Source: Alloascoidea hylecoeti (lineage: Eukaryota). Taken from it: 64,000 bases of DNA. The stretch's first letter is position 1. The number at the start of each line of letters is the position of its first letter. The stretch is from NCBI GenBank assembly GCA_001600815.1, contig BCKZ01000013.1, forward strand, positions 124,001 to 188,000. The letters run 5' to 3'. Shown here piece after piece: positions 305 through 57,606 of the stretch. The notes under the pieces were generated by a model. It was given only the letters and a program-made list of their open reading frames with translations, made no database searches and had not been told where the DNA came from. A program made the translations under genes and the position numbers.

Positions 305-1461
305 AAACAATAACTCGGAATAACAAACATTGGCATCTAGAGTAGATCAATTATACCTATATACTTGATATGATAGAATTCTTTATTTAGCACCAAACAA
401 ATAACAAACATTTGCATTTTTAGATCCATATCACTAATTTGTATTCTTTAAACAACACAACCCCACCATAACCCATCCTCATCTGTAACACCTAAAAGAT
501 TATATTATCATCTAAAATAAAATTGATAAAATATGATATTCAATTACAAATAATAAATTATTTTAGCCTCATCTCAGACCATTCAAGTCAGCAATATCAT
601 TTTCCTTTCCAACTTTTAATTGTTCTTCTATTTCTTTACTTGAAATTTTTTTAAGTTGTGGTTTACTACTGGAGAAACCGAAATCTATAAAGTAAATAGT
701 TCCATCAGAAATTTCAGATTCTAATCACACCATGTCATATCAAATAGATACTGATATAAATAAAGATATTAAAGTTGAAGATTTTCCAATAAGAATTGAT
801 AATAAAAACAAATGTTTTAAAATATCACCCAATCAAATATGTGATTTTGAATAATCAGCGTTTGCTTTTGCATTTTATTTTATTTATCAGAAAATCTATC
901 AAATTCTTTGAAACACATTCAAAAAAAAAAGGTGAATAACGCCGTTAAAAATCTTTTAAATTGTTTACGCAAAACTCCGAGCGAGATTAATTTGGATGCA
1001 GAAAAACCGAGATCTGAATTAAAACAATTACTACGAAAAGAATTCGGCGAAAAAGAAGTTAAGTTTACTCACTCGTATGGATTTATATTTAAACAAATAT
1101 GTTTTAACAGAATCGGAGCTTAACGGCATGTGTATTCAATATGCATGGAACCGAAAATATCATAGTCAAGTAATGAAATTGTCGAAGGAATTATTTGAAA
1201 AAATAAACAGAAATCAAAATGTACAAATACCAATGGAAAATGAAAATGAATATATGTTAAAAATCTACGATCCTTTTTGTGCTTTTAAGGGCTATCGACG
1301 TTCTAATCAGATGCCCAAAAAATGTTTTCAACATTTTGCAACTGAAAATATCAAACATATTGTCTAATAAAAGATTATAAAAGGTCTATACATTTTATTC
1401 CAAACTTAATTTGTTTTGGATTCATTGAATTCAAATCTGATTCTGGTGCACAAGAAAACGA
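305..1461. pseudogene. Rearranged fragment of the nuclease-kinase family (3' end reversed at 305-712, middle part forward at 713-1461); left arm of an inverted repeat
   Basis: Near-identical to parts of the 55.6-57.0 kb copy; ORFs 908..1123 and 1077..1367 are identical to the minus-strand ORFs 2067..2282 and 1823..2113. Confidence 0.8.
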
Positions 1462-2877
1462 CAAGTCAGCAATATCATTTTCCTTTCCAACTTTTAATTG
1501 TTCTTCTATTTCTTTACTTGAAATTTTTTTAAGTTGTGGTTTACTACTGGAGAAAATCTATAAAGTAAATAGTTCCATCAGAACTTTCTATAAAATTGTG
1601 TTTTATGTCACCGTGTATAATGTTATAGGAATGAAGAATCAGCAGATTTTCTTTTGCTTTTTGGAAGATACTAGGATCTGTCCGGTGTTTTGCCTTTGAT
1701 ATAGTCCATCAAAATGAAAATACCGCCATCGTTTTCTTGTGCACCAGAATCAGATTTGAATTCAATGAATCCAAAACAAATTAAGTTTGGAATAAAATGT
1801 ATAGACCTTTTATAATCTTTTATTAGACAATATGTTTGATATTTTCAGTTGCAAAATGTTGAAAACATTTTTTGGGCATCTGATTAGAACGTCGATAGCC
1901 CTTAAAAGCACAAAAAGGATCGTAGATTTTTAACATATATTCATTTTCATTTTCCATTGGTATTTGTACATTTTGATTTCTGTTTATTTTTTCAAATAAT
2001 TCCTTCGACAATTTCATTACTTGACTATGATATTTTCGGTTCCATGCATATTGAATACACATGCCGTTAAGCTCCGATTCTGTTAAAACATATTTGTTTA
2101 AATATAAATCCATACGAGTGAGTAAACTTAACTTCTTTTTCGCCGAATTCTTTTCGTAGTAATTGTTTTAATTCAGATCTCGGTTTTTCTGCATCCAAAT
2201 TAATCTCGCTCGGAGTTTTGCGTAAACAATTTAAAAGATTTTTAACGGCGTTATTCACCTTTTTTTTTTGAATGTGTTTCAAAGAATTTGATAGATTTTC
2301 TGATAAATAAAATAAAATGCAAAAGCAAACGCTGATTATTCAAAATCACATATTTGATTGGGTGATATTTTAAAACATTTGTTTTTATTATCAATTCTTA
2401 TTGGAAAATCTTCAACTTTAATATCTTTATTTATATCAGTATCTATTTGATATGACATGGTGTGATTAGAATCTGAAATTTCTGATGGAACTATTTACTT
2501 TATAGATTTCGGTTTCTCCAGTAGTAAACCACAACTTAAAAAAATTTCAAGTAAAGAAATAGAAGAACAATTAAAAGTTGGAAAGGAAAATGATATTGCT
2601 GACTTGAATGGTCTGAGATGAGGCTAAAATAATTTATTATTTGTAATTGAATATCATATTTTATCATTTTTATTTTGGATGATAATATAATCTTTTAGGT
2701 GTTACAAATGAGGATGGGTTATGGTGGGTTGTATTGTTTAAAAAAATTTGTGATATGGATCTAAAAATGTAAATGTTTCTTATTTATTTGGTGCTAAATA
2801 GAGAATTCATATTGAGTAGATATGTATTTTTTTTTCCGAGTTACTGTTTTAGTTGTAAAATTTCTTAATAAAATTCT

Positions 2878-2878
<1 letters not shown>
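1462..2878 (-). pseudogene. Second rearranged fragment of the nuclease-kinase family (middle and kinase part on minus strand; 3' end flipped at about 2478-2878)
   Basis: Minus strand reads LKIYDP...IPNLICFG...GGIFILMDYIKGK...LHSYNIIHGDIK with frameshifts; 1729-2850 is the reverse complement of 305-1461. Confidence 0.8.
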
Positions 2879-2911
<33 letters not shown>

Positions 2912-2939
2912 NNNNNNNNNNNNNNNNNNNNNNNNNNNN
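2912..2939. other. Assembly gap inside a long poly-T run
   Basis: N run flanked by about 30 T on each side. Confidence 0.99.
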
Positions 2940-12302: not shown

Positions 12303-13489
12303 CACTCGGTTGAAGACTATAAATTGGTGATCTTTTTCTGACACCCAGGGAATTTGGAATATGAGTAAAAATTACTACTCAATTGTTAAAATAAGCAGAA
12401 GGCTTAATATTGAACATTCAATCGTTCGGTACATCGTAAATAAATACAACTACTCTTCTAGAATAACATCTCCAAGAATTAAAAAGTCAACCAAACTAAC
12501 TGTTGTTGCGGAGAATCATATTCCGAAAGTTGTGAAATAATTTCTCTTGAATACTTTTGAGGAGCAGGCTTCAAAGTTATTCATTGGTATATCAAAGGCT
12601 GCCTAAATCCTCTTCTGTAAAAACATGAATATGAAATGGTTTTGGCACGTAAATAGTCTTATCTGAATAAGAAGAACTAAATTAATGATAGAATGGTATT
12701 GTCTACATATAGATTGAAGTGGTCTCATAATATTTGGGATGGTGTTGTATTTAGTGATGAATATTCGGTCGTACACGATCCGGATCTGGAAAAGTATATG
12801 GGCCCACAAAAGCCACGCCAGGCCTTTAAATTAAAAACTACTCATATTAAAGGAAATTCTGAGTGTGTGGGTATTCAGTTATATGCTGAAATTTGGAAAG
12901 GAAACCGTGATTCACTGTATAGAGTGGTTCGGAATCCTAATTGCACAAAAAAAGGAGCCATCACACACATTCCTACGTACAGCTTCTGGAAGAGGCCTTT
13001 TTTGATGAGATTCCCGAGTATCTCATATTAAAGAAGAAGAACATATATATCCATAAAGCTAAGATCATGATGAATTTGTTTTGTGGAAAGGATATAGAGG
13101 TGTTATAGTGGCCGCCTTTTTGAACGGACCTGAACTTAATTGAGGTGGAAATTCCCCATAAAAGTTCATCAGATGAAATTGCGATTATGAGCCTTCCATA
13201 TGTAATAAAAGTGAATAAATACCTAGTGTTAATGGTTAATGTCTCTTTCAAGATACTGGGGCCTCGTAGATCAGGGTATCATTGACTCCATTTCTCGTAG
13301 GTATATGGCGTTAAGTTGACCAACAAGAAGTATTAAACTTACAATCTCAATTTTCATGTACTAATACAATCAAGAATTTACGGAACATTATGTACTATTT
13401 TAAGAACTGTTTAAAGCTTTGTATATTATTCAGTGGGTGGTTATATGGTGGGTATAAAAAGATCACCAACTTAAGTCTTTAACCGACTG
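12303..13489 (+). mobile_element. Tc1/mariner DNA transposon with both ends, transposase pseudogenised
   Basis: Imperfect ~40-bp TIRs (cactcggttgaagact..ttggtgatcttttt / aaaaagatcaccaacttaagtctttaaccgactg), TA on both sides; remnants WDGVVFSDE and EVL*WPPF*TDLNLIE. Confidence 0.85.
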
Positions 13490-13789
13490 TACCACTTTAT
13501 ATAGTACTAAGTATTGACACTGGTAATATAGACGCGTTCCTAATCTTCTCGTTGTCAGCTATATTGATTTATACTGTATGAATCTGTTTGTGTTAACGTT
13601 AAAGTCCTTTTTCATCTCCTACTAAATCTCAGACGATTTCAAACCATTTAAAGAAGGACTTTTCTCCCATCTTCTTATATAAATCAAAAATCTAATTTAC
13701 TTAAAAGCCAGCTGTGACAGATATTAAGAAGTATGATAATAATCAGGATAATAAAGACAAAGAGTAGGAATAAAATATCGACATGAATC

Positions 13790-14801
13790 TGTTTCAAAGA
13801 ATTTGATAGATTTTCTGATAAATAAAATAAAATACAAAAGCAAACACTGATTATTCAAAATCACATATTTGATTGGTAATATTTTAAAACATTTGTTTTT
13901 ATTATCAATTCTTATTGGAAAATCTTCAACTTTAATATCCTTATTTATATCAATGTCTATTTGATATAAAATGGTGTGATTAGAATCAGAAATGCATCCA
14001 AAAGGAGTTTTAGAAAGAGGACACCGGTGAACAGATTGAGTTAAAATTTTGTTAAAATTGTCAAAGGGATTTTCTATGTCCACGATAATATTTGGTTTTT
14101 TTAGTTCTATATTTATATAGATATTGGAATCGGTTTTCACGATATAATTTGAAAATGGATTAATATTTTGAATATTACTTTATTCTGATGTTAATTCTGG
14201 CTGTTTGGGTAAAATTTGTAACTTTAACTTTCTTTCATATAGCAACCTAATTATCTTTTCGGTTGGAGAAATTTGTGGTTCAGGAATTGTCGTTAAGACT
14301 AAAGTGCGTTATTGGTGTTCTAGGATTGTACAATAATAAAATTTAGATCTCGTTCGCTTTTGAAAACTTGTTTTGTAACCATTCCAACTCTTTTTTAAAA
14401 TTAAGATCACAATTGTTCAGATTTTGATTAATTTTTTTGATACCATGTATTATAGAGGACACTCTATTACTTGTCGGTGTTGGCTTTCTACTCTTTTTTA
14501 AAGGCGTGCTTGCGCCTGGGCTTGGGTTTTAGGTCTTGAACAGCAAAAAGTCTGGTAGTGGGAATATTCAGCAAAAATAAAGCCGAGAGTTCAGGATTAA
14601 GTTCCTTGTCAAACCAATGAACAATGGTAGATATCTGTTCATATAGGACGTTTAAAATTCTGGATCATTAAAATTTCCAAAATCAGCTAGAAGATCGTCA
14701 GTATCAAAGAGCAAGTCTTGACTATTATCTTGACTATTAGAGCGATGTTCCAGAACAACTTTCTTATAGTTATTTAATTTATCTGTTATTAAATCAGACA
14801 T
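13790..14801 (-). pseudogene. Nuclease-kinase family copy, 5' half only (kinase missing)
   Basis: Starts MSDLITDKLNNYKKVVLEHRS; contains SNYIVKTD..IELKKP..ILTQSVH..FGCISDSNHTILY; stops and frameshifts. Confidence 0.8.
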
Positions 14802-14829
14802 TGGACACCAGTGTGTGTGATAAGATTTT

Positions 14830-15600
14830 TCATCATCAAATCATCACTAATGCGAAATCGAGCCCTCAACCTTTCAGTTGCGGACCGGACCCTCCATTTG
14901 GTTGTAGGTAGTTTGCCACTGAGGTTTGTGAAACAACCGCTTCTCTCTCTTATTTTGTTGTTCTTGAATTCGGACTCATAGAAAAAGTCCATTTCTTGGG
15001 AGTGATCATTTTTATCTTCTTTTTTCTTATTTTCATTCATTTTATCGTTTGCATTCGCCGTAGTCTCCGTTTCTATTAGTTTCCGGTGCATCATCTGAAT
15101 GAGTTTCTATATCCATCTCGGTGTCAATTGATAGACTTTTTTGTTTCAACCTCCTTGTTGACAATGAGTTTTCTGGTTTCTTCTGTATCCTTTGTTACGT
15201 CTTCCTCAATTTCATTCTCTCCTTATTGTTTGCTAGGGCTGAAGAAACCTCTTTTTGAATATGTACTTTCTTCCATTTTTGTCTTTCACTGTGAGCAATG
15301 ATCCATTTAGGATCGGTAATATCCACATTTTTCGATCTCTCTTGTTCATTCACGAAGAGGCTTTCATGGTGCGCTAACTCCATGTCCAATTTTTTTGATA
15401 CTCGATATCTATCAGTGGAAAATTTTTGCATTGCTTGTGCGAATGCGGAGTCTCGCCACAGGAGAAACAGGAGGGAGCTTTTTTGCATTCCCTTTTCGAA
15501 TGAGATCTGGATGAACAAATCGGGTAGAACCGAATGTTGGTCAAAGGTTTGATGAGGATATGATGAGTAACTCCCTCCTTGATATTCTCTTTTTTTTTTT
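14830..15600 (-). mobile_element. Retroelement fragment, probably LINE ORF1 zinc knuckles
   Basis: Minus-strand frame near 15380-15530 reads YPICSSRSHSKREC-KKAPS-CFSCGETPHSHKQC (two CCHC-type knuckles), followed by a charged low-complexity region. Confidence 0.55.
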
Positions 15601-15824
15601 ATTTAACCATAGATCCTTTTATTAATACTTAATAGATTAATAGGAGTTTGTTTCAGTAAAAGGAAACGTTGTTGTAAAACAAAAATAATAGAGAGAAGCG
15701 GTTCTTTTACACCTCATTACCAACGTTTCCGGCGTAGTGGCAAATATATGTATAAAATTTTGCCCATCGAGTCTAGGTAAAGAACGGATGAAAAATCTTA
15801 CCACACACACACTGGTGGTGTCCA

Positions 15825-16620
15825 ATGTCTGATTTAATAACAGATAAATTAAATAACTATAAGAAAGTTGTTTTGGAACATCGTTCTAAAAGTCAAGACT
15901 TGCTCTTTGAGATTGACGATCTTCTAGCTGGTTTTGGAGATTTTAATGATCCACAATTTTTAGACGTCCTATATGAACAGATATCCACCATTTTTCATTG
16001 GTTTGACAAGGAAGGTGATCCTGAACTCGGCTTTATTTTTGCTGAATATTCCCACTACCGCACTTTTTGCTGTTCAAGACCCAAGCCCAGGCGCAAGCAC
16101 ACCTTCAAAAAAGAGTAGAAAGCCAACACCGACAAGCAATAGAGTGTCCTCTATAATACATGGTATCAAAATTAATCAAAATTAATCAAAATCTGAACAA
16201 CTGTGGTCTTAACTTTAAAGAAGAGTTGGAATGGTTACAAAAAAACAAGTGTTCAAGAGCGAACGATCCATATTTTATTGCACGTACAATCCTTGAACAC
16301 CAATCACGCGCTAGTCTCAACAATTCCTGAACCACAAAATATTTTCTCCAACCAATCAGGTTGCCATGTGAAAGAAAGTTAAGGTTACACGTTTTACCCG
16401 AGGGAATTAACATGCAATATCCTTACAACTATAGAACTAAAAAAACCAAATATTATCGTGGACATAGAAAATCCCTTTGATGACAATCTCAACAAAATTT
16501 TAACTCAATCTGTTCACCGGTGTCCTCTTTCTAAACTCCTTTTGGATGCATTTCTGATTCTAATCACACCATTTTATATCAAATAGACATTGATATAAAT
16601 AAATATATTAGCTGAAGATT
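15825..16620 (+). pseudogene. Nuclease-kinase family copy, 5' half only, inverted relative to the 13.8-14.8 kb copy
   Basis: ORF fragments 15825..16118 and 15973..16185; IELKKP and ILTQSVH retained, PD segment deleted. Confidence 0.8.
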
Positions 16621-26908: not shown

Positions 26909-26999
26909 CAACCAACTGGCCGGATATCTAAACATATAATTTAAGTAACCATAGTTCTTCAGTTTCCAAAATAAATTGAACTTACTGAATTATCAGTAA

Positions 27000-33060: not shown

Positions 33061-34049
33061 ACATTAGAATAATTAGAAACTGTCTTCTCTCCTCCAGTTC
33101 ATATATTATAGTATTAATATAATTTATTATTTTTAATAATCAAGGGGTAGTTCAGCGAGTTGACTACTACGTATATTGTAGTTATACTAGCTTTATAGTG
33201 GAAACATTCTCCAATGTCAGCTTATTAGATCTCGATGGGTATAGGGCAAATTAGTAGTGTGATCTGCCAGTTATTGAATGACTTGTTAATTAAACTCTTT
33301 GAAAAATACTAATTTGTCTACGAGGTTGTATCTCTTAGTGCCGCTCTGTGTTCCATTTTTTTTAATAAATTGAACTCATACATATACCAAATCTCCCCAT
33401 TAATCTTCGGGTACCCATTCACATAGGATAGTTTCTGTGGCATAGTTCCTATTTATTCTATTCGATATCTTTAGAAAACATCACTCTTGCGGTTTACTAG
33501 ATTCTAATCATCACCAAATCAGTCCTGTCACCTTTTTTCAATCACTTATTTGATCAAATTTCAAGCATTCAAAATCCCGTTATTTCTTGTCTTCAGATCC
33601 ATTTAATTCCTGTCCTCTCTCGAATAAAGCTTAATATAAGACGACTTCATTTTCTTGATGTTTTGAATTTCGGGGTTCCCGCTGCAATTCCCTACTTATA
33701 ATCTAGTTTTTTAAGGGTTATAACAGCTACGGATAAGTAAACCGATCTTCCTAATTCTTGATGTCATTTAAAATATAGATCCGAAAATTTGGAGGAATCA
33801 ATGTTACAGGATTTCAATTAGGGAATTAACCTATAATTATATATGTTGAGAGCACCTTTCTGGAATACGAAACACCTATAATTAAGGGGGAAATGCTACG
33901 GCTCTCTTGCTTGATTTTCTTGGAAATATATGATAAAACATTGACTTCCTGAAAATACTTCTTTGTCTAAAACTCCAGGTATATCACCAATCAACTCAGA
34001 AGACGCAAGTTCATATAGAGTCATTTCACTTAATCTTGACTTCCTCGTA

Positions 34050-34330
34050 GACTAAATATTAGGCCGCATGAGGTACTGAAATTCGGCTACATTATAAACT
34101 AATGTTGGGCACATTATGTATTTTATTTGACCACATTATAGACTATAATGCGGCCTCTCCATTAAATATGTTAAGCAACAAATATTGATGAACAAAAATA
34201 GCTTATTTGTTGAACTAATAATCGACAGTGTAGTGACGAATGTTGGGTCACTTAAGGTACTAAATAATCGCTTACTGGATACACTAATGTTCGGCCACAT
34301 CATTGAATAAATATATCATTTGACACACTT
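34050..34330 (+). repeat. Degenerate array of TTCGRCCAC-like motifs upstream of the F-box gene
   Basis: taaatattaggccgc, attcggctac, tgttgggcac, tttgaccac, tgttcggccac at about 20-bp spacing; similar to the 51.8 and 57.8 kb arrays. Confidence 0.55.
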
Positions 34331-34460
34331 GACCCCTTTGTCACTAGATTTCACAAGTAAATTGTAACCCCCTTATTTTCTTTCTACATTATTATTAGAA
34401 AAAACCATAATATTATTGAAAACCACTAGTTTTCAATACTAATTTAAACAATTACAATAT

Positions 34461-35723
34461 ATGTTCTCACCCAAAAGTACTGGGACGAGAATCGACTTTG
34501 TTCCCGACCTCCCTTACGAAATATTTGATATAATCTTCTCAGATTTCCCAATCAAAACTTTACTTAATTGTAAAAGAGTTTCGAAATTATGGAAACAAAT
34601 ATTTGAAAATGATCGTATATGGAGATCAAAATTTCAACAAAAATCTTGGAAATACTATAATGATGATTCCGAAACTGATTCTTGGTATGAATTATACAAG
34701 GAACGTCATCTATTAGAATTGAATTGGAAAAATGGTACATTTACTCAGCATAGATTAAGTGGTCATTCTCACAGAACATGTTGTGTTAAATTTTTCAAAA
34801 ATTGGATTTTAACCGGTTCAAGCGATTGTACAATAAGAATTTGGGATAAAGAAACTTTTCAATGTTTAAGAATTTTAGGTAAACTAAATCTTAAAACTAA
34901 AGGTAGAGGACCACCAGGTTCGGAAAAGTTGGAATCAACAAAAGAGTTTCATTTCCTTGCAATTACTTGTATGGAAATTAATGATAAATATTTGGTTTCT
35001 GGTTCAGATGATTGCTCTTGTATAATTTGGTTATTACCAGAACTTAAACCAATCGATCGTCTATTAATACCGATAGAAGGAAGTTCTTCTTCGGGTATAA
35101 GAGATGTCGCTTTATACAATGATTATATTGTAAGTTGTGATTATTACCATGCTTGGGTTTGGAAATCAAGTCCTGATAATTTAGAACATCCATTACGATT
35201 TAATTTACAACACCATTTAAAAGCAGATACTTTCATTAATGGTATTTACGTTTATAACGGTATTATATATGTTAGAGATTTTGGAGCTATAATATTCTGG
35301 AATATTGAAACTGGTCAAATCATCCGTCTATTTCGATATGATCAAGTAAAATCCATGGCAGTAGGTGATCAATATTTATTTGTTGGGCGCAAACAAATAA
35401 CAGTTCGGGATTTACAATCAAATAAATTAGTAAATGATTTGCCAGAACAATATAACGGACAATATACGTCACCAGTTCAATTATCAGTATATGATAATAA
35501 ATTCATTTCTGTTTTTGAAGATTGTAGTATTAAAATTTGGAATTTAAACGATTTAAAATTATTTAAGGAATTCAAAAAATTAGAATATGGAGAATTATAT
35601 TTAAGGCCTGATTTTTCAATTGGTATTGATTCTAAAAGGCTAGCAGCTTTTTCTTTGTATGGTGATGCTGTTATTTATGATTTTACAGAAAATTTACGGA
35701 AAAAATATTTAAAACATTTATAA
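34461..35723 (+). CDS. F-box/WD40 repeat protein (divergent SCF substrate adaptor)
   Basis: F-box LPYEIFDIIFS..LLNCKRVSKLWK; LELNWKNG; WD40 GHSH..TGSSDCTIRIWD and VSGSDDCSCIIW. Confidence 0.9.
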   Translation: MFSPKSTGTRIDFVPDLPYEIFDIIFSDFPIKTLLNCKRVSKLWKQIFENDRIWRSKFQQKSWKYYNDDSETDSWYELYKERHLLELNWKNGTFTQHRLSGHSHRTCCVKFFKNWILTGSSDCTIRIWDKETFQCLRILGKLNLKTKGRGPPGSEKLESTKEFHFLAITCMEINDKYLVSGSDDCSCIIWLLPELKPIDRLLIPIEGSSSSGIRDVALYNDYIVSCDYYHAWVWKSSPDNLEHPLRFNLQHHLKADTFINGIYVYNGIIYVRDFGAIIFWNIETGQIIRLFRYDQVKSMAVGDQYLFVGRKQITVRDLQSNKLVNDLPEQYNGQYTSPVQLSVYDNKFISVFEDCSIKIWNLNDLKLFKEFKKLEYGELYLRPDFSIGIDSKRLAAFSLYGDAVIYDFTENLRKKYLKHL

Positions 35724-41268: not shown

Positions 41269-42444
41269 ATGTCGAGTAAATCAATTCTTCTAGGGGCCTT
41301 GATTATGGCTTCTGCCACTATTGCTAGTGACTGTGCTTCTTTATATGGTCAATGTGGTGGTTCGAATTGGAGTGGTGCTACTTGTTGTTCTACAGGTACC
41401 TGTGTATCACAAAACGATTACTATTACCAGTGTGTAGCAACTGCTGATTCTGGTGAAGCTCAAGCATATTCTTCGGAAGATTCTGGTTATACATATACAA
41501 CTGCAACTTCTGGTGGAGCTGTTCAAGCGAGCACAGCTGCCGCTGTCCAAGCCAGTACTGAAGCAGCTGAAATAGATGCGGCCGCTTCGTCATCTACTGC
41601 CGCTGAGGTAGTTCAAGCCAGCACTACAGCTGAAGTAGATGTGGCTGCTTCATCTTCGGCTTCTGCTGAAGTTGTTCAAGCCAACACTGATGCAGCTGCC
41701 AAAGATGTGTCTACTTCGTCTTCAGTTGCTTCAGCTGCTTCCTCATCATCATCTTCTTCTTCTTCATCGTCATCTGGCACTGTTTATAACTTTGAGGAAG
41801 TTTCTAATGGGTTTAGTGGTACAGTAGAAGAGACAACAAGATACTGGGATTGTTGTAAGCCAACTTGTGCATGGAGTGGTTACGCCAATGTTACTGAACC
41901 AGTTCGATCATGTGAAGCTGATGGTGTTACAACCATTGATGATAATACACAAAGTGGTTGTGTTGATGGCTCAGCTTATGTTTGTAATGATAATCAACCA
42001 TGGGCATATAACAGTTCTCTTGCTTTTGGTACTATTGCAGCTAGTATTGAAGGTTATGGTCCATCTGATACATGTTGTTCATGTTTATTACTTACATTCC
42101 AATCTGGAACCATTGCTGGTAAACAATTTGCAGTTCAAATCACTAATACAGGTAGTGATGCCAGAGAAACATATACTGCTTTTGATTTATTAATTCCAGC
42201 AAGTGGTGTTGGTTATTATACAGAAGGTTGTACAGGACAATGGAATGATGCTAGTTCTGTTTGGGGTGAACAATATGGTGGTGTTGATGAAGCATCAGAT
42301 TGTGATGCTATTCCTTCTAGTTTGCAATCCGGCTGTGATTGGAGATTTGATTGGATGGAAGGTGTCAGTAATCCAACAGTTACTTATAAACAAATAGAAT
42401 GTCCTTCGGTTCTTACTGATATAACTAAATGTATTAGAGACTAA
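41269..42444 (+). CDS. Secreted GH45 endoglucanase with N-terminal CBM1 and Ser/Ala/Thr linker
   Basis: Signal peptide; CBM1 [25 protein letters not shown]45 [28 protein letters not shown]. Confidence 0.95.
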
Positions 42445-45800: not shown

Positions 45801-46667
45801 TAAGCCTTGGGTAGATATAGCCCTTCCTGATGAAATAATGATAATTATTATTAAACGTGGGTAACTAAACGGTGCATCTATATGTGAACTATATAAACAC
45901 AAATCCAAAAACATTTGTTTTTTAGCTGACGGTTAATCTCAGCTGTATATATATTTAAAGTAATCTATAGCATTATCGTACTTTTTCCCATTAATTGAGC
46001 ACCTCCGTACTCAACAAGAATTGATATTTCTTTTTGTGACATTATGGATATCACCAATTATTTACTGCACGAAAGATGGTCGTTCAACATTTGCACAACA
46101 AAACATAGCTATAATTGGAATTTTAATGAGACTATCAAAGATATGGAGAAATTATGATTATAGATATAGTTGATTATTTTTATTACTATCTGGGCCTTTA
46201 ACATAAACCGAAGATTGACCAGGTCATGACAAAAGTTCCGTACGGAAGAACCGAGGTGTGGGACCCGAAGGTGGAAAAGTCGACTGAAGCAATGTCCTGA
46301 TGGATCCAAAAGACCAAAAACCAAAACAAAACATAAAAGATATGATTTTAATTCAGTAGAGAATAAATCCTGTAGATTAGATTTTGTTCTCCTTTTATTT
46401 TGTTTCTTAACTAGCTAATTAATTATATAACTATTTAATGCTTAGTAAGTTCTAGTGATCTCCAACTATGATTCATATTTAAAGATATAGAATAGTGAAA
46501 ACAGAAGTATAATATAGGCCCTTAATGGCCACTTGAAAGAAATAAAAAAGTAGAAAAAGGAGAAGTATATAATCTGTGGGAACAGAAACTAATCTATCTG
46601 AGAACTTGCGTAGATTATACCACACATCTCACTCTGACAAAAATCTTGTCACTCTTTTCTTTTGCCA

Positions 46668-47513
46668 ATGTCTGATTTAATAACAGATAAATTAAATAAC
46701 TATAAGAAAGTTGTTTTGGAACATCGTTCTAATAGTCAAGACTTGCTCTTTGAGAGTGACGATCTTCTAGCTGGTTTTGGAGATTTTAATGATCCAGAAT
46801 TTTTAGACGTCCTATATGAACAGAAAACTACCATTGTTCATTTGTTTGAAAACGAAGGTGATCCTGAACTGTCGGCTTTATTTTTGCTGAATATCCCCAC
46901 TACCGGACTTTTTGTTGCCCAAGGCCCAAGCACAACCACAGGCACAGGCACAGGTATACATTCAAAAAAGAGTAGAAGGCCAACAGCGACGAACAATACG
47001 GCATCCTCTAATACATGCTATCAAAATTAATCAAAATTTGAACAACTGTGATCTTAATTTTAAAGAAGAGTTAGAATGGTTACAAAACCAGTGTTCTAAA
47101 GCAAATACGGATGATTCAACTTCTGATATTGGTACAATCTTAAAGACACTAATAAGGCACGTTAGTCACATCATCGAAGCTAATGTTAAAGACCTCCTGG
47201 CCTTCAAAATATTTGCTCCAGGCGAAGATATAATTAGGTTGCTATATGAAGGAAAGTTAAGGTTACAAATTTTACCCGAACAGAATCTAAAGAAATTGGT
47301 ATTTCAAATATGAATCTAGTTCCAGATTATATCGTGCAAACCGATTCCAATATCCTTATAACTATAGAACTAAAAATACCAAATATTATCGTGGACATAG
47401 AAAATCCCTTTGATGACAATTTCAACAATATTTTAACTCAATCTGTTCACCAGTGTCTTCTTTTTAAAAATTCTTTTGGATGCAATTCTGATGTTAATCA
47501 CACCATTTTATAT
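46668..47513 (+). pseudogene. Nuclease-kinase family copy retaining PD..ExK but frameshifted and lacking the kinase
   Basis: ORFs 46662..47030, 46912..47313, 47310..47726: VPDYIVQTDSNILITIELKIP..ILTQSVHQCL..FGCNSD.NHTILY. Confidence 0.8.
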
Positions 47514-48551
47514 CTGTTTATACAACTTATTAGCTACAGCTCTAAGCCTGGGGATGATTGCGGGGTTCTTACTTGCCTCCAACATTTCATTATGTACAGC
47601 TGTGTCAATAATCTAAGGTATAATGTATGCAATAAATATTTATATGTTAAAATTTCATATCACGATATCACAATATTTGAAATTTATATGATAAAATTGA
47701 AATTGCAATCGATGTTTTGTATGTAATACTGTCTCATTATCTTTGGTTTTAATTATGTAATTATTACTATAATAAGATCTAGATGCATATGCATATATAT
47801 GTTCAACAGTTTTAGCTAATTGAATTAAAATACATAAAATATCTTGATGCTATAGTGATTCTATAAATAACCGTTTTAAATATTATCATTGTTTTAATTT
47901 GAGCTTTATTTTACTAAGTTTTACTTATAGATTAAACTATTATCATTAACGATTGATTGAGAGAGTGCCATTGTAGCTCACGGAATTAGTGGTGATGCGC
48001 AATAAATTTGACTCAAATTCTATTCTAAACAGACAGACAGGAAAAAATAGGTACAAATTTAAATATTGCGATGGCTTAGCTATTTCAATACTATATAAAG
48101 AAATTATAGATGCATTTAATAGATCAATTTTAGATATAATTATAATTAAAATGCAGAAAGTCGCTATATGTTTAGCTTTGTAGGCGTATTTCCAATAAAT
48201 GTTTATATGCATCTAAAGCTTAATTGGCTTGGTGGGATATCTTCTCATCATGAAACGTTAAAATCTCAAACCTTTCAAACCAATTATGGAAGTAATTATA
48301 TCGAACTATTGTTATACTCATGCCTAAGACATGATTAATATAATAGATCTAGATCAATATTTAAAGATGAATAGTTAAAAATCAACAATTGAGAAAACTA
48401 TTTAAACAGTTTGAAATTCCTCTTAATATGATTTTTCTTTTCTTCAATCACTGGTTGATTAAACAATAAGAGCAAATAAATTTTACTTTTATTACTTTAC
48501 AAACTAACTCCTTTTTTTCACTCTCAATTTCAATTCAATTTAAAAACAAAA

Positions 48552-49210
48552 ATGCTTTTTAACAAAGTTGCTGGTACATCTTTGATCTTTGCATCTGCTG
48601 TTTTTGGAGCAGCTGTTTNNNNNNNNNNNNNNNNNNNNNNNNNNNNNNNNNNNNNNNNNNNNNNNNNNNNNNNNNNNNNNNNNNNNNNNNNNNNNNNNNN
48701 NNNNNNNNNNNNNNNNNNNNNNNNNNNNNNNNNNNNNNNNNNNNNNNNNNNNNNNNNNNNNNNNNNNNNNNNNNNNNNNNNNNNNNNNNNNNNNNNNNNN
48801 NNNNNNNNNNNNNNNNNNNNNNNNNNNNNNNNNNNNNNNNNNNNNNNNTTGGTGGTTTTGGTCAAGGTTCTCAATCTGGCTCATACGGTGGTTCAGCACC
48901 AACTGGATCAGCAGGTGCCGGTGGTTTTGGTGGGTTTGGTGGTAATGGTAATGATAGTCAATCAGGAAGCTTCTCAGCTGCCGATTTTACTGGTTCCGCT
49001 GGTGACTTCGGAGGATTTGGTGGATTTTCACAACAAATATCAGGTACATTTGCTACAATTGGTACCTACGGTGCTGGATCTGGCTCTAATGCTTATGGAA
49101 CAGAAGCTGTGGAGTCTGATTATGCTGGAGCTTATGGAACAGAAGCCGTAGAATCTGACTATGAAACTGCTGCTGCTGTTGTTACTGCCGCCGCCACTGT
49201 CAGCGCTTAA
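48552..49210 (+). CDS. Secreted Gly/Ser/Phe-rich repeat protein, paralogue 1 (interrupted by assembly gap 48619-48848)
   Basis: Same signal peptide and similar C-terminus as 50805..51650; stop at 49210; frame offset attributed to the estimated gap length. Confidence 0.75.
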
Positions 49211-49819
49211 GTGAATTATATTTTATGTTTTACTTGAATGTAAAATGTGCTCAAGTATTTGATAATTATAAAAATATGTGAATACTAAATTTTACTTTTA
49301 TTTCTTCTTTTTTACAATTTTTTTATAAATATCCGTAACGGATGTAATCTATCCAAATTCAAATATAAGGCCAATCAATTGAATATTAAGTTTACACTTT
49401 TTTTAGACACTTCTCTAAAAAGAAATGGCGATATTATAAAGTTACTGATCAGTAAATACTCTATGGGATTTATTAAAATAGTGCATAATGTATTGTAAAT
49501 ATCGGTGATTAGATTAGTATATAAAATGAAAAATTAAATATAGCTAATGTTGGCAGCCTTAACGCTATAATATCACTCTACGATGCATGTAGTCACTCAA
49601 ATCAAGAATGATATTTTGATCGATTAGATACCAATATTCTGGAAGAAATGGATCTTTCTTTGTTTCTAAACAGTATGAAAGACTCATGATTGCAATTCCT
49701 GTTTTGTGATGCACTTTTTGGGGAGATACCAAATGTGCTCATATAGATTTAGATTCAGATCCTTGTTACAAAATCTAAACCAATTCGTTATTCCAGCTTT
49801 ATGAATAAGTTTATCCTGC

Positions 49820-50260
49820 ATTAATATGAGAACCTCCTTTCTAAATTCCGACCTATATCATAAAACTGACAAACCCAGACTTCCTTAAATAAGTTATAGG
49901 CTATCTTTGACATTCTAACGTTGAGCTTGGAAACCAGCTCTTCAAACGTATTCAAAGGAGAAGCTTTATCATCAGGATTTGATTTACCGTCCTATAATTA
50001 ATTTCTACGGGATTTTTGCTTCAGGAGCATCGGGGGTGTTACACTGGAAGAATTGCTAGAGTATTTCTTAAAGTGAACCGCGGATGAGGAGCTCATATTC
50101 TGTCTATTTTGGTGAATTAGAAGCTATGTCTACCTATACTTACATGTATTATATGTTCCAATCTGCAGCTTAGTTGGTTGTAAGTTCTTTTTATAATTAC
50201 AATTACCTGGAATTTCGCTTAACCGAATTCTAGAGGTGATTATATGGTATATTTAAACAG
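49820..50260 (-). mobile_element. Tc1 transposase remnant within the tandem unit
   Basis: Homologous to 58190-58950 with internal deletions. Confidence 0.55.
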
Positions 50261-50804
50261 GTGTGGAGTGTCTAGTAAAAAAGGATAGGCTCAATCTTTG
50301 ATCAGGTAAAGAGGCATCCGAATACTCGAATGTTCTTCAACTTCATTTTCATATAACGGATTAATATGAATATGCATAGTAAAACCCTGCATAATGCAAT
50401 ATGTACATGTACACACACAGATCAATTTTTATTTAATTATAATTAATATGCAGAAAGTTAAATTTATACAATATTTGTGATAGGCGTATTAAATTTGCAA
50501 TAAAGGACCCTCGTTATATGAAACGTTTAAAGCTCAAACCTTTCAAACTCTTCAAACTAATGATGAAATTTAATTTCGATTCACTTACCAAGCCTGAGAC
50601 ATGATATATAATATATCTGAATTAATGGTTATTTAAAAAATTCAAGAAAACTATTTAAACAATTCGAAATTCCTCTTAATATGATTTTTCTTTTCTTCAA
50701 TCACTGGTTGATTAAACAATAAGAGCAAATAAATTTTACTTTTATTACTTTACAAATTAACTCCTTTTTTTCACTTTCAATTTCAATTCAATTTAAAAAC
50801 AAAA

Positions 50805-51650
50805 ATGCTTTTTAACAAAGTTGCTGGTACATCTTTGATCTTTGCATCTGCTGTTTTTGGAGCAGCTGTTTCTGTTTCTGGTGATGCAACAGCAGTAGCT
50901 ACTGCTGATAGCGTCCAATCTGGAGCAGCAGCCTCTGGATCTTATGGTAATGACGATTCTCAACAATCTGGCTCATATGGTGGTTCAGTAGCAACTGGAT
51001 CAGCAGGTGCCGGTGGTTTTGGTGGTTTTGGTGGTTTTGGTCAAGGTTCTCAATCTGGCTCATACGGTGGTTCAGCACCAACTGGATCAGCAGGTGCCGG
51101 TGGTTTTGGTGGTTTTGGTGGTTTTGGTCAAGGTTCTCAATCTGGCTCATACGGTGGTTCAGCACCAACTGGATCAGCAGGTGCCGGTGGTTTTGGTGGT
51201 TTTGGTGGTTTTGGTCAAGGTTCTCAATCTGGCTCATACGGTGGTTCAGTAGCAACTGGATCAGCAGGTGCCGGTGGGTTTGGTGGGTTTGGTGGTTTTG
51301 GTCAAGGTTCTCAATCTGGCTCATATGGTGGTGCAGTAGCAACTGGATCTGCTGGAGGTTTTGGCAGTTTTGGTGGAAATTCCGGTGTCGGTGGTTTTGG
51401 TAGTCAATCAGGAAGCTTTTCAGTCGCAGATTTTACTGGTTCTGTTGGCAACTTTGGAGGATTTGGCTCATTTGATGGTGCTTCAGAAACAGGTTTTGGT
51501 GGATTTTCACAACAAATATCAGGTACATTTGCTACAATTGGTACCTACGGTGCTGGATCTGGCTCTAATGCTTATGGAACAGAAGCCGTAGAATCTGACT
51601 ATGAAACTGCTGCTGCAGCAGTTACTGTTGCTGCCACTGTCAGCGCTTAA
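50805..51650 (+). CDS. Secreted Gly/Ser/Phe-rich repeat protein, paralogue 2
   Basis: 281 aa; signal peptide; 87-nt (29-aa) units starting at 50964, 51051, 51138, 51225, 51312; aaaaATG start context. Confidence 0.85.
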   Translation: MLFNKVAGTSLIFASAVFGAAVSVSGDATAVATADSVQSGAAASGSYGNDDSQQSGSYGGSVATGSAGAGGFGGFGGFGQGSQSGSYGGSAPTGSAGAGGFGGFGGFGQGSQSGSYGGSAPTGSAGAGGFGGFGGFGQGSQSGSYGGSVATGSAGAGGFGGFGGFGQGSQSGSYGGAVATGSAGGFGSFGGNSGVGGFGSQSGSFSVADFTGSVGNFGGFGSFDGASETGFGGFSQQISGTFATIGTYGAGSGSNAYGTEAVESDYETAAAAVTVAATVSA

Positions 51651-51825
51651 GTGAATTATATATATTTACTTGAACGTTAAATATGTTTAAGTATTTAATA
51701 ATTATATGTATATCTATATGTGAATACTAAATTTTACTTTTATTTCTTCTTTTTTACAAATTTATATTATATATCTGTAAACAGTAGTGATACCACTTAT
51801 TATTGGACGAGGATTAAAGATTCGG

Positions 51826-52072
51826 CCGCTTTACACTTAATTTACGGCCACCCTGAACTAAATATTCGTCCACGTCATACATAAAGGTTCGACCACTTAT
51901 TGAATAAAGTATTCGGCCACTTCTTGAATTAAATACTAGCCCACACCTTGAATTAACATTCGACCACATGACTCCCAAATATTCGACCATGCTTGTAAAA
52001 ATGATCGACCACCCTACACTAATTTTTGGCCATCTATACTTTCAACAAGCTGCTGGATACTTGTTCGACTAC
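51826..52072 (+). repeat. Array of about 10-11 motifs, consensus TAAAtaTTCGRCCAC, period about 21-25 bp
   Basis: For example taaaggttcgaccac, taaagtattcggccac, taacattcgaccac, caaatattcgaccat, separated by variable 6-10 nt. Confidence 0.85.
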
Positions 52073-52899: not shown

Positions 52900-54630
52900 A
52901 ATGGCTGACTATATAGTAACTACTAAATATCGAGCCTCATTTCATAAACTAATCAAAACAAACCTTAATATCTAACACTCCTTCTTTACCTTACTTAATA
53001 ATCATTTTATAAGGTAACTCTTCAGTTTCATAAAGGTGTTACTAACTGGTTTTATTAGAATATCTGAATAATTATCTTCAGTTGGTACTTTCTTGATAGA
53101 TTCAAAATGTTGATTCAGAAACAACCTGTTACGAATATATTTTATTCTTGTATCAATGTGGTAATTTCTTCCTTAAGACACTGGATTAGTTGCCCATTTA
53201 ATTACCGTGTAATTGTCTTCCAAATAATCAATTTTAATATCTTCACCATAGATAAACTTCAATAAATTCATTAATTTATCAAGCATTTCACAAGCATAGT
53301 CCAATGCTAGCAACTCAGATTCAGATGCTGATTTTGTTATAGCAGATTGTCTGCGGGANGCCCATCCTATAATGTTTCCATTAACCATTAAAATAACACC
53401 GGAAGTGCTTTTACGACTGTAATCTCCCGATTTGTCCGAATCCACGAAAACTGTTACTTTATCCTCAATGTTATCTTTATTATAAGATAANACGATACCT
53501 TCCTTCTTGGTAGATAATAAATAACGAGTAACTTGGTGTATCAATCTCCAACTTTCTTTGATTTCAAATGAGTAAATCTCCCTAGATAATTTATCGCGTA
53601 ACAGCAATCAATTCTTAACATATTTCCATGATAAATCAACTTACCAATAGCGGATCGATATGAATATTCTTTAATTATTTCTTTTTCATTCACTTCAATA
53701 TAATGATGTGGAATTTGGGGTAATTTGACCCTTTTAACTTTATATAATTGTCTAATCTATACACATTGTCACATTCTTTAAAACCCTTTCCAACCAAGTG
53801 GTCTTTAATGTGGGTTTGCCACAATGATGCTGAACGTTTCAATCCATACAAGGCTTTATTTAACTTTAGCACTTTGCCACCTTTATCTTCATCTCTTAAT
53901 CTAAAATAAAATGGAGGAAAATTCACATAAACTTCTCTATCATCTTCACGTAAATGTGCATTCAAGTATGCATTACGAACATCGAAAGTCACCATTTTGA
54001 ACTTTCTTTGAAGTCCATAAGTTATCAATAATAACAGTGCTTGAATTGATAATGTTGAAGATGTGTATTGATGATTGATTTCAGTTAATTCCTTATCCTT
54101 ATCGCCTCTTACAACACATCTTGCTTTTTCCACCTTATTATCACCAGCAATTTTCTCCGTCAACACCCATTGTGTAGGTAATATGTTGGTATTTGTAGGT
54201 ATCTTTTTGAATTTCCATTAAATCCCCAATAGCCTGCAATTCATCCAACATAGCAAACTTATACCTATCAAATATTGCATTTGATATCTGCTCTGTAGCA
54301 ATCACCAACCCAATGCTTTCACTTACGGCTTTTCGCATGCTTCTGGTAATTCTCCTATTATTAGTGATTGGAATTCTGACCTAATTGTTGTCCATTCTCA
54401 GATTTCGAGGTATCATTTCATCCTCTACTCCTTCTAAGATATTGTTTTTATTATCTGCCGTGCTCTTCAAAATATCTCCATCACCATTCAAATTGTTTAA
54501 TATTGGAACACTGATTTCTTCATGCTCCTTTACTAATTCATCATCTGAATTATCAATATCTCTATCAATATCTTTACCATTAAAGCATTGGGTGGGATTG
54601 ATCATGGATGATAATGGCAGGTTTTTCCAC
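52900..54630 (-). mobile_element. Ty1/copia LTR retrotransposon relic (RT and RNase H, PPT, start of 3' LTR)
   Basis: KARCVVRG, FDVRNAYLNA, LNKALYGLKRS, VDSD..RKSTSG, SASESE, EDN, HIDTR, DILIKP; purine tract aaagaaggag then TG at 52977 on minus strand. Confidence 0.9.
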
Positions 54631-55265
54631 AAAACAAAGAAACAATTGCTGCTGATTGGACTCAGAACAGAGATAGTGTCAAGAATAATATTTATGGGAG
54701 ATCTGTTTGGAAAAACTGGAAATTGAAACTATATTCAAGAAAACCTTTTGAAATGAGACAAGAAAAGTATGAAAATGCTATACCGAAGATTAAAGATTTG
54801 CAAGAAATATATTAAACTACTACCAAAGTAATAAATGGAGAGAAACCAAACAAAGACGCTACACAGATTGATAAACACGAAAAAAAGTTGGAGTTGATTT
54901 ATTGGAAAGCTTGCAATAAGTACTGATGAACAACGTAAACTGACTATCGGTATGGAGAAACGGAAAAATGACGATAATGGAAAAAACAAAAGGGACGAAG
55001 CCGAGGATAAAATGAAATAAAATTAATAATATTATATTTTTGTTGTTAATTTATATACTTGAATCATTAGTTTCTTTTACACCTATGGGAATTTGAATCT
55101 TATGGGAAGATTATGAATTTTTGTCAAAAACGTAATCAATATAGTTACTGTATTGCCTGTGATTACTGTTGTCCAGAGTCGTCTATTGAGTGATTATAGG
55201 GTTATGGACACACTCGTTGATTACTCATTGTTTAGCCTTTCAGTAGTCCCACATTTGTCTCTTGA

Positions 55266-55325
55266 TAGTTTCTTCTTCTACATAGTTTCTTCTTCTACAT
55301 AGTTTCTTCTTCTACATAGTTTCTT
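55266..55325. repeat. 17-bp tandem repeat (atagtttcttcttctac), about 3.5 units
   Basis: Directly visible. Confidence 0.9.
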
Positions 55326-55925
55326 TCTAGTTTAATCTTTACAGATAGATAGAACAAATATAGTCTAATATATATATTCTATCACAAATATCTTCTGAGA
55401 TTCATCTTATCCTATAAAACTACAGAAATTCAAATTTCCTTATACGAATTAAGATACTTGAAAGTGTAAGCATTAAATTAATTATATCTGTTAATAAAAA
55501 AGAGTTGAGAAATCTACCCCAAGGGTGAACCATCTCAGGATAGTTCTACTAAATTCCTTTAGGGTTCACGATTATTATTATTTCAACTGTTAGGCGAATA
55601 TTTTAAAATTATTAAATCTTCGAATTAGAATTTTATTAAGAAATTTTACAACTAGAACAGTAACTCGGAATAACGAGCATTGGCATCTAGAGTAGAACAA
55701 TTATACATGTATACTTGATATGATAGAATTCTTTATTTAGCACCAAACAAATAACAGACATTTGCATTTTTAGATCCATATCACTAATTTTTATTCTTTA
55801 AACAACACAACCCACCATAACCCATCCTCATTTGTAACACCTAAAAGATTATATTATCATCCAAAATAAAAATGATGAAATATGATATTCAATTATTCAA
55901 TTACAAATAATAAATTATTTTAGCC

Positions 55926-57606
55926 TCATCTCAGATCATTCAAGTCAGCAATATCATTTTCCTTTCCAACTTTTAATTGTTCTTCTATTTCTTCACTTGA
56001 ATTTTTTTAAGTTGTGGTTTACTACTGGAGAAACCGAAATCTATAAAGTAAATAGTTCCATCAGAACTTTCTATAAAATTGTGTTTTTTTATGTCACCGT
56101 GTATAATGTTATAGGAATGAAGGATCAGCAGATTTTCTTTTGCTTTTTGGAAGATACTAGCCTTTGATATAGTCCATCAAAATGAAAATACCGCCATCGT
56201 TTTCATGTGCACCAGAATCAGATTTGAATTCAATGAATCCAAAACAAATTAAGTTTGGAATAAAATGTATAGACCTTTTATAATCTTTTATTAGACAATA
56301 TGTTTGATATTCAGTTGCAAAATGTTGAAAACACTTTGTGGGCATATAATCAGAACGTCGATAGCCCTTAAAAGCACAAAAAGGATCGTAGATTTTTAAA
56401 ATATATTCTTTTTCATTTTCCATTGGTATTTGTACATTTTGATTTCTGTTTATTTTTTCAAATAATTCCTTCGACAATTTCATTACTTGACTGTGATATT
56501 TTCGGTTCCATGCATATTGAATACACATGCCGTTAAACTCCGATTCTGTTAAAACATCTTTGTTTAAATATAAATCCATACGAGTGAGTAAACTTAACTT
56601 CTTTTTCGCCGAATTCTTTTTGTAGTAATTGTTTTAATTCAGATCCCGGTTTTTCTGCATCCAAATTAATCTCGCTAGGAGTTTTGCGTAAACAATTTAA
56701 AAGATTTTTAACGGCGTTATTCACCTTTGTTTTTGAATGTGTTTCAAAGAATTTGATAGATTTTCTGATAAATAAAATAAAATGCAAAAGCAAACGCTGA
56801 TTATTCAAAATCACATATTTGATTGGTGATATTTTAAAATATTTGTTTTTATTATCAATTCTTATTGGAAATCTTCACCTTTAATATCTTTATTTATATC
56901 AATATCTATTTGATATAAAATGGTGTAATTAAAATCAGAATTGCATCCAAAAGGAGTTTTAGAAAGAAGACAACTGGTGAACAGATTGAGTTAAAATTTT
57001 GTTGAAATTGTCATCAAAGGGATTTTCTATGTCCACGATAATATTTGCAAACTAATTATCTTTCTGGTTGGAGAAAATATTTTGTAGCCCAAGAATTGTG
57101 AAACAATAGCTTCGTTGATGCGACTAACGAGCGTTATTGGTTCCTCTAAGATTGAAGCAATAATAAAATTTAGATCATTCGTATTTGCTTTTGAACACTT
57201 GTTTTGTAACCATTCCAACTCTTCTTTAAAATTAAAAAAAGATCACAATTGTTCGAATTTTGATTAATTTTGATACCATGTATTATAGAGGACGCTCTAT
57301 TTCTCGTCGATGTTGGCTCTCTACTCTTTTTTGAAGGTGTGCTTGTGCTTGGGTCTTGAACAACAAAAAGTCCGGTAGTGGGAATATTCAGCAAAAATAA
57401 AGCCGAGAGTTCAGGATCACCTTCCTTGTCAAACCAATGAACAATGGTATCTGTTTACGTAGGACCTTCAAAAATTCTGGATCGTTGAAATCTCCAAAAT
57501 CAGCTAGAAGATCGTCAGTATCAAAGAGCAAGTCTTGCCTAATAGAACGATGTTCCAGAACAACTTTCTTATAGTTATTTAATCTATCTGCTATTGAATC
57601 AGACAT
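55926..57606 (-). pseudogene. Most complete copy of the PD-(D/E)xK nuclease plus kinase-like family
   Basis: ATG at 57606 (MSDSIADRLNNYKK) to stop at 55926; kinase motifs ILKIYDP, IPNLICFG, ILMDYIKG, LHSYNIIHGDIKKHNF, IYFIDFGFS; several frameshifts; nuclease core deleted near 57045. Confidence 0.85.

Follow-up and report, generated by a model that had tools for sequence, protein, structure and literature searches.

In a 64,000-nucleotide (nt) stretch of the Alloascoidea hylecoeti genome (contig BCKZ01000013.1, positions 124,001 to 188,000; hereafter the window), we identified five broken members of a single repeated gene family, in which a candidate PD-(D/E)xK nuclease module precedes a short kinase-like domain. 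We read these loci as members of an orphan family that is both amplified and decaying, has a nuclease-kinase layout and is possibly a selfish killer-rescue element, a composite reading that we advance tentatively and rate at somewhat less than an even chance.

Self-blastn, repeat finding and MAFFT alignment placed the related DNA in one family at five loci, copies A to E (Table 1). Pairwise DNA identity was 77-98% over 130-1109 nt, with E values down to 0, and the relatedness is therefore far beyond chance; when 11 family pieces were compared with the window by tblastn, all 76 matches fell within the five loci. An earlier note on this DNA had counted six related segments, and self-blastn and MAFFT recovered all six to within a few tens of bases, but the pair at 305-2878 (recovered as 299-1461 and 1462-2878) forms one palindromic locus, copy B, so that five loci remain. 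The palindrome arms of copy B (353-1461 and 1729-2827) are 98% identical. The ends of copies C, D and E fall at positions equivalent to 56734-56912 of copy A, and copy B starts at the equivalent of 56940. Identity between copies is 80-82% in the N-terminal third and 93-95% in the middle, and homology among them begins about 40-70 nt from the ATG and ends about 300 nt past the stop codon.

Each copy was read in the frame that is open in most copies. All five loci are broken by frameshifts, stops, deletions or truncation, in agreement with the earlier claim that the window holds no intact copy. Copy A carries eight frame breaks (at about 57448, 57234, 57047-57051, 56972, 56871, 56586, 56160 and 56006), of which the one at 57047-57051 is a deletion of about 150 nt that removed the PD..ELK segment. 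Copy C has at least three frame breaks, an in-frame TAA at 14180-14182 and a change of PD to SN; copy D is the most fragmented, with many frame breaks and its PD segment deleted; and copy E has two frame breaks in addition to its truncation. Two breaks, EKEVKFT/TRMDLYLNK and MDYIKG/SIFQKAK, are common to copies A and B, indicating that their common ancestor was already a dead copy.

The family is an orphan and lineage-restricted. An exhaustive phmmer search of 1,835,955,588 representative proteins with P0001 (the copy C stretch 13784-14308, its in-frame TAA read as X) returned five matches at E ≤ 0.001, which were open reading frames (ORFs) of 65-174 amino acids (aa), all singletons on NCBI contigs of 2-34 kb. 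A word-indexed search with the 158-aa kinase piece found no longer protein and one 96-aa fragment of similar length. The sole locus returned by a scan of JGI metagenomes (L002) was rejected as a GC-rich, bacterial, chance match to one 8-residue pattern.

Family DNA was followed in four public sequencing runs. Two of them, X1 and X2, share a sample; X3 belongs to a different study of the same organism, and the source of X4 is a wood-decay metagenome. Each run carries 31-45% of the sampled words of copy A, and no RNA run was found among the listed sequencing runs that carry such words. An intact CBM1-GH45 endoglucanase gene lies in the window at 41269-42444 (+), consistent with a wood-associated lifestyle and in line with the wood-decay origin of one of these runs. 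Contigs of the four runs were placed on copy A at a likeness of at least 80%, with the low-depth interval 57040-57193 left out of interpretation. Family bins sum to about 5-37 times the flank depth across the runs, a summed depth that is not a copy number; depth in X1 is about 59-81 in the flanks and, except for one low bin, 298-2248 in the family bins. Contigs of one variant, which differs from copy A by about 6%, individually reach 10-14 times flank depth in each of the four runs (735 against 59-63 in X1, 263 against 26 in X2, 109 against 6.5-9 in X3 and 100.5 against 7-12 in X4), and we read this depth as about ten copies of the family, or more, in each genome. The amplified depth, together with the broken state of every locus in the window, bears out the earlier description of a family both expanding and decaying. 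Contigs of this kind cannot tell whether any one copy is intact end to end. For each of the eight frame breaks of copy A, a compensating state was found in some contig (Table 1), and frame arithmetic restores the reading; the variants at 56581-56622 and 56159 put the nuclease and kinase parts in one frame. As variants free of each break exist, intact copies may exist elsewhere in the genome, and we infer from these contigs that live copies would have a single fused reading frame.

The C-terminal kinase-like domain, which the earlier note had proposed, is well supported as genuine by matches of its 58-63-aa catalytic piece in four libraries. In Pfam, the 63-aa catalytic fragment of copy A matched Pkinase at E 1.8e-7 (31.3 bits against a cut-off of 31.7); in NCBIfam, the best match was arch_bud32 at E 4.1e-9; in PADLOC, PD-T4-6 kinase models were matched at E 1.5e-7; and in the PDB, 1171 distinct sequences were matched at E ≤ 1, the best at 5.9e-5 (CDKL2, PAK1) and the best 60 of the 1171 all protein kinases. 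The N-lobe piece found ESM Atlas neighbours at 0.90-0.94 (APH, YrbL, APH_6_hur and fructosamine kinase clusters), the ten best all in one clan. The hallmarks of protein kinase-like domains are present, namely a candidate beta-3 Lys (in LKIYDP, 56394-56396 of copy A), an HxDxKxxN catalytic loop and a DFG motif. The quoted motifs LKIYDP, IPNLICFG, ILMDYI, HGDIKKHN and IDFGFS were all located in copy A, with HGD and DFG, on the minus strand, at about the positions that the earlier note had given. The domain resembles Bud32/RIO-like minimal kinases in its HGD loop, its DFG and a very short post-DFG region without an activation segment or APE motif; it differs from them in scoring 36 bits against the arch_bud32 family cut-off of 125, in lacking a KEOPS context, in being fused to another module and in being multi-copy.

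The central module probably has a PD-(D/E)xK nuclease fold, judging from its motifs and from several weak matches that converge. Its candidate catalytic motif, P-D-YIVQTDSNILITI-E-L-K, is preserved in copy E, and P0004, a 49% identical relative, retains PD, IELK, TQSVxQC, TPFG, D and T(I/M)LYQIDI. When proteins of the nuclease region were compared with PADLOC, just two matches appeared at E ≤ 1, both to nuclease families: the FG..SD..LYQ stretch of P0002 matched PD_DExK (E 0.001), and the PD..ELK stretch of copy E matched SduA/DUF4263 (E 0.065). In the ESM Atlas, P0004 found a 175-aa Ascomycota cluster at 0.86, with PF27653 SPOK2_N in 11% of its members, and HSDR_N_2, BpuSI_N and HSDR_N clusters at 0.81-0.83. 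We take these neighbour families (HSDR_N, HSDR_N_2, BpuSI_N, SPOK2_N-type) and SduA to be PD-(D/E)xK nucleases. Two AlphaFold models (P0001 and P0004) show a helix, a strand, a strand on PD, a strand on ELK, a helix on QSVxQ and a strand; this order, H-E-E(D)-E(ELK)-H-E, matches the PD-(D/E)xK core, with little weight in models whose predicted local distance difference test (pLDDT) scores are 34 and 36. The motif grammar is also that of EcoKI-type HsdR, which reads ADYVL..VVEAK..ESYRY..YSTNG: HsdR_N and HSDR_N_2 share with the family the pattern (hydrophobic)-D-Y-(I/V)-(V/L)..(hydrophobic)-E-x-K followed by a helix and a small-residue strand, and differ in that the family has no helicase or methylase partner. 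The restriction-endonuclease (REase) fold proposed earlier is weakly supported, by convergent sub-threshold matches in PADLOC and the Atlas, and no hidden Markov model (HMM), profile or structure match to it is significant.

The architecture was read from separate frame pieces rather than from a joined sequence, and the ancestral protein would have had about 560 aa in four parts. An N-terminal region of about 100 aa (MSDLITDKLNNYKK...) is followed by a Ser/Thr/Gly/Lys-rich linker (..SKKSRRPT..) and a second helical region (..EELEWLQNKCSKAN..LLYE..LQILPEQ). Next come the PD..IELK..TQSVxQC..TPFG.(I/V)SD..T(I/M)LYQIDI module, a linker of about 110 aa and the kinase region (LKIYDP, ATEYQ, IPNLICFG, ILMDYIKG, HGDIKKHN, IDFGFS), which ends in a tail of about 45 aa. 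Because the database ORFs P0006 and P0003 run in a single frame from the second helical region into PD..ELK, these two parts belong to one ORF. The remaining motifs quoted in the earlier note were likewise found, MSDLITDKLNNYKK in copies C, D and E, PDYIV-x9-IELKIP and ILTQSVHQCL in copy E, and FGCISDSNHTILY in copies C and D. The possibility that the kinase is a separate overlapping ORF beginning at MDLYLNK was set aside, as an X1 contig with seven fewer bases fuses the frames, a variant seen in one run only.

The earlier note had likened this domain order to that of Spok meiotic drivers and Crinkler-type effectors. A kinase does lie downstream of a conserved PD..ELK..QSVxQC..FG..SD..LYQ module, but the identity of that module as a nuclease is weakly supported. 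As described in the part of PMC6660238 (Vogan et al. 2019) used here, Spok proteins have an N-terminal coiled coil, a domain 1, a PD-(D/E)XK domain with QxxxY whose best HHpred match is HsdR, a Cys/His cluster and a C-terminal kinase called nearer to eukaryotic-like kinases (ELKs); the nuclease is assigned to killing and the kinase to resistance. SPOK1 causes DNA damage in Escherichia coli and Saccharomyces cerevisiae, according to the portion of PMC9972908 drawn on. On these partial descriptions, the family would share with Spok (PMC6660238) an N-terminal domain, an unstructured linker, a candidate PD-(D/E)xK-type module with HsdR nucleases as its nearest known relatives and a short C-terminal kinase (about 160-200 aa), all in one polypeptide, and both are multi-copy, patchy in distribution and repeat-associated. 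The C-terminal kinase-like domain with a catalytic Asp that characterizes Spok is represented by HGD and DFG. In contrast, HMMER detects no sequence similarity to Spok, which is known here by description (the exhaustive phmmer search returned family fragments only); the D-to-K spacing is 16 residues in the family and 21 in Spok; the catalytic loop HGDIKKHN is of the Ser/Thr eukaryotic protein kinase (ePK)/Bud32 type; and the host looks like an intron-poor yeast, whereas Spok hosts are filamentous fungi (Podospora and other filamentous ascomycetes).

Crinkler C-termini combine a REase with a kinase in about one sixth of cases, and the REase is thought to be the toxin, as far as PMC5289972 (Amaro et al. 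2017, summarising Zhang et al. 2016) is used here. The likeness would lie in the coupling of a REase-superfamily domain to a protein kinase, with the nuclease thought toxic and the kinase its regulator (same source); the family differs in having no ubiquitin-like (Ubl) header and no sign of secretion, in an organism that is not a known pathogen and in copies that have decayed. Both likenesses, to Crinkler and to Spok, consist in domain order and a short kinase and are drawn from descriptions of those systems. Neither LxLFLAK nor HVLVxxP occurs in the N-terminal frame pieces of copies A, C, D and E, the nearest string being ALFLLNIP; the Spok Cys cluster is absent as well. The wtf/tdk drivers of fission yeast, in the part of PMC12930445 consulted, are similarly lineage-restricted, multi-copy and fast-diverging, with many pseudogenes near repeats; they differ in being unrelated proteins with neither nuclease nor kinase, and in that drive has been experimentally demonstrated for them. 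The evidence supports a Spok-like layout, and at best, by analogy, the family might work like Spok or the REase-kinase Crinklers.

In the mechanism that we propose, the window loci would be dead members of an orphan, lineage-restricted gene family of about ten or more copies per genome, whose protein would consist of an N-terminal domain, a Ser/Thr/Lys-rich linker, an HsdR_N-like PD-(D/E)xK nuclease and a short Bud32-like kinase ending about 45 residues past DFG. By analogy with Spok and the REase-kinase Crinkler C-termini, harm would come from the nuclease, and the kinase would hold it in check; a family of this sort could propagate as a selfish element of the killer-rescue or conflict type, with copies decaying once redundant or silenced. 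A toxin-antidote or drive function, taken as a separate claim from analogy, seems to us unlikely. Slightly more doubtful still is the most specific version of this proposal, in which a Spok-type single-gene killer-rescue family, either of ancient divergence or assembled independently, would belong to an intron-poor, wood-associated yeast lineage, lack the Cys cluster, bear a Bud32-like kinase and have been amplified to ten or more near-identical copies, some intact elsewhere, with the window as a graveyard.

Several points weigh against the killer-rescue reading. No nuclease match reaches statistical significance by HMM, profile or structure: Pfam gave just DUF6602 for the nuclease region, at E 0.016 and in one of 13 members, with neither HSDR_N nor HSDR_N_2 matched at E ≤ 10; the nuclease pieces had no meaningful match in NCBIfam or PHROGs; the PDB profile search of the module gave no match; its Atlas scores all lie below the 0.9 line, with a consistency count of one in ten; both AlphaFold models are of low confidence; and hhalign against 53 EcoKI-type HsdR N-termini (residues 1-270 and 1-460) gave a probability of 0.1-0.2%, a result that is weak either way with a query Neff (effective number of sequences) of 1.6. 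The Spok Cys/His cluster, C-x3-C-x13-C-x5-H-x7-H, is not in the family, as the earlier note had remarked: the two frame pieces that separate the nuclease module from the kinase (56587-56871 and 56160-56585) hold one Cys each, without the Spok cluster spacing. The helix motif is QxxxQ (Q-S-V-x-Q) rather than the QxxxY of Spok. In addition, no intact copy is found at the five loci of the window, none of the six database ORFs exceeds 174 aa, and at three copy A breaks the compensating state accounts for no more than 13-30% of the depth, so that many copies may be dead. Nei-Gojobori ratios of nonsynonymous to synonymous divergence (dN/dS) between the window copies (N-terminal 0.5-0.85, middle 0.6-1.4, C-terminal 0.6-0.85) give no clear sign of constraint.

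These ratios would also fit an ordinary, fast-evolving multigene family of small kinases in a repeat-island, subtelomere-like or pericentromeric setting, whose central module is not a nuclease, whose resemblance to Spok lies in domain order only and whose copies arise by segmental duplication and neutral birth and death. We regard this as a possible but rather unlikely explanation. The kinase is the sole firm identification, no nuclease evidence is significant by itself, the copies lie among other repeated families and retroelement debris, and the unit has no defined ends, with loose ends at 55685, 55790, 55849 and other places; however, the weak matches from two independent libraries and a language-model search converge on PD-(D/E)xK at the expected sub-motifs, PD and ELK are retained at 49% identity, and the variant at 10-14 times flank depth is near-identical over 373-509 nt, which points to recent amplification or homogenisation. 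That the family is instead a gene of an unrecognised mobile or extrachromosomal element (a transposon, virus-like element or linear plasmid), with the window copies as nuclear insertions and fragments, is improbable. The copies showed neither terminal inverted repeats nor target-site duplications, nor a sharp 3' end common to them; no transposase, polymerase or capsid gene accompanies them, the N-terminal part has up to 10 distinct contigs at one place, and the nearly constant depth ratio (10-14 times flank) across four libraries of three studies is more in keeping with a fixed number of chromosomal copies than with a plasmid. Such an element would nevertheless explain why the repeated unit corresponds almost exactly to the gene (from about 40-70 nt from the ATG to about 300 nt past the stop), why one variant stands at high depth and why the insertions are fragmentary and rearranged, as is typical of captured plasmid or viral DNA. 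It would also fit the sequence ATNTGA, found within 80 nt upstream of three of four family ATGs and of none of nine control genes (0.2 per 80 nt expected), although the three sites are partly homologous (those of A and C near-homologous) and not independent. ATNTGA presumably matches the promoter box of yeast cytoplasmic linear plasmids.

A further alternative, that the copies in the window are actually intact genes whose frame breaks stem from errors of assembly or sequencing, we judge very improbable. Several breaks do sit in homopolymers, and the window contains N runs and a palindromic start, but long housekeeping ORFs in the same window are intact, and neither the truncations nor the deletion of about 150 nt nor the breaks shared by copies A and B are homopolymer slips. 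Contigs of other runs match parts of copy A at single-copy depth with 0-1 differences (X3, 57264-57403; X4, 57047-57288); the palindrome joint of copy B at 1461-1462 is reproduced in other runs' contigs, as an opposite-strand joint at 55941-56197 (copy A coordinates) in X1; and the database ORF P0003 stops at the same A-specific frame break, 56972.

Single-protein killers that combine a nuclease with a kinase (Spok) have been described for filamentous fungi in the part of PMC6660238 used here, and a literature search on Spok and Saccharomycotina found no report of such homologs in the titles or abstracts retrieved. If the killer-rescue reading is true, nuclease-kinase meiotic drivers would extend beyond filamentous fungi, this architecture would recur in eukaryotic genome conflict, and a yeast family built on this logic, in a genome that is small and tractable, would lend itself to genetic dissection of the toxin-antidote mechanism. 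Otherwise, the family is a clean example of an orphan family between amplification and decay.

Table 1. Positions in the window of the family copies, their parts, the frame breaks of copy A and neighbouring features.
Feature	Position	Strand	Remarks
Copy A	55626-57610	-	Sole near-full-length copy, about 560 codons
Copy A, ATG	57604-57606	-	
Copy A, stop codon	55926-55928	-	Followed by about 300 nt of shared 3' flank
Copy B	299-2878	mixed	Rearranged inverted duplication; C-terminal two thirds only
Copy B, piece	299-715	-	
Copy B, piece	713-1461	+	
Copy B, piece	1462-2477	-	
Copy B, piece	2475-2878	+	
Copy C	13784-14834	-	N-terminal half; ends at A-equivalent 56734
Copy D	15787-16620	+	N-terminal half; head-to-head with C; ends at A-equivalent 56870
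Copy E	46639-47514	+	N-terminal half; best-kept reading; ends at A-equivalent 56912
Copy E, frame piece	46668-47009	+	
Copy E, frame piece	47011-47289/47313	+	
Copy E, frame piece	47250-47513	+	
Candidate catalytic motif, copy E	47322-47375	+	D 47325-47327, E 47367-47369, K 47373-47375
Linker and kinase N-lobe piece, copy A	56160-56585	-	142 aa; hinge ILMDYIKG
Kinase catalytic piece, copy A	55988-56161	-	HGDIKKHN (HGD 56093-56101), IDFGFS (DFG 56033-56041)
Copy A break	57449		Compensating state +4, 13-37% of depth
Copy A break	57234		Compensating state -5, 16-38% of depth
Copy A break	57047		ELK segment present as loose end, four runs
Copy A break	56972		Compensating state -1, 90-100% of depth
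Copy A break	56868		Compensating state +1, 0-31% of depth
Copy A break	56581-56622		Compensating state -7 in total, X1 only
Copy A break	56159		Compensating state +23, all depth in X1, X3 and X4
Copy A break	56004		Compensating state +1, 82-100% in X1 and X2
80-nt span upstream of ATG holding ATNTGA, copy A	57607-57686		At -50
80-nt span upstream of ATG holding ATNTGA, copy C	14802-14881		At -40
80-nt span upstream of ATG holding ATNTGA, copy E	46588-46667		At -72
ATNTGA upstream of ATG, copy D			None
Ty1/copia-type reverse transcriptase fragment	53690-53995	-	RVT_2, E 8e-14
Inverted match in 24999-34461	25348-25625/33722-33442		73%
Inverted match in 24999-34461	26045-26740/32058-31438		63%
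Inverted match in 24999-34461	28110-28236/30273-30144		75%

The copies lie among transposon remains, as the earlier note had stated, with retroelement debris nearby that includes the RVT_2 fragment. A frame with CCHC-knuckle-like text was observed at 15374-15598 (-), in the interval that separates copies C and D, themselves head-to-head; the frame 15195-15602, which overlaps it, has no Pfam match. This frame and the RVT_2 fragment look like retroelement debris. A second repeated family (48117-51792, 57939-60206 and 12514-13029) adjoins copies E, A and C; its ORFs at 48552-49151, 50805-51650 and 59489-60061 have no Pfam match. It contains 87-nt tandem units at 50964-51349 (4.4 copies, 96% matches), which encode a Gly-rich repeat of the GGFGGFGGFG type, and one of its copies includes a run of Ns (48619-48848). 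The minus strand carries clusters of a GTGGTCGAAT-like motif at 51864-51990 (five sites) and 57800-57927 (four sites), in the flanks of the second repeated family and about 200-320 nt upstream of the copy A ATG; with at most one mismatch, the motif occurs 16 times in the window against 2.0 expected, and none of 100 shuffles reached 16. At the outer edge of the copy B palindrome, T31-N28-T31 at 2881-2970 marks a scaffold gap within a long poly-T tract.

The window is AT-rich (28-39% G+C across 2-kb bins), and its genes are fungal and intron-poor. Intact fungal housekeeping genes without introns lie between 5.7 and 43 kb; they encode a class I/II aminotransferase, an LsmAD protein, a reticulon, a Ras-family small GTPase, a copper amine oxidase, an F-box/WD40 protein, Nop53, an ABC-D transporter and the CBM1-GH45 cellulase. 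No tRNA genes were found in the window, and no telomere-like repeats at its start. A 9.5-kb region at 24999-34461 contains no ORF of at least 100 aa and shows nested, diverged inverted matches that are symmetric around about 29.2 kb (Table 1); this region could be an inverted-repeat centromere or a decayed palindrome.

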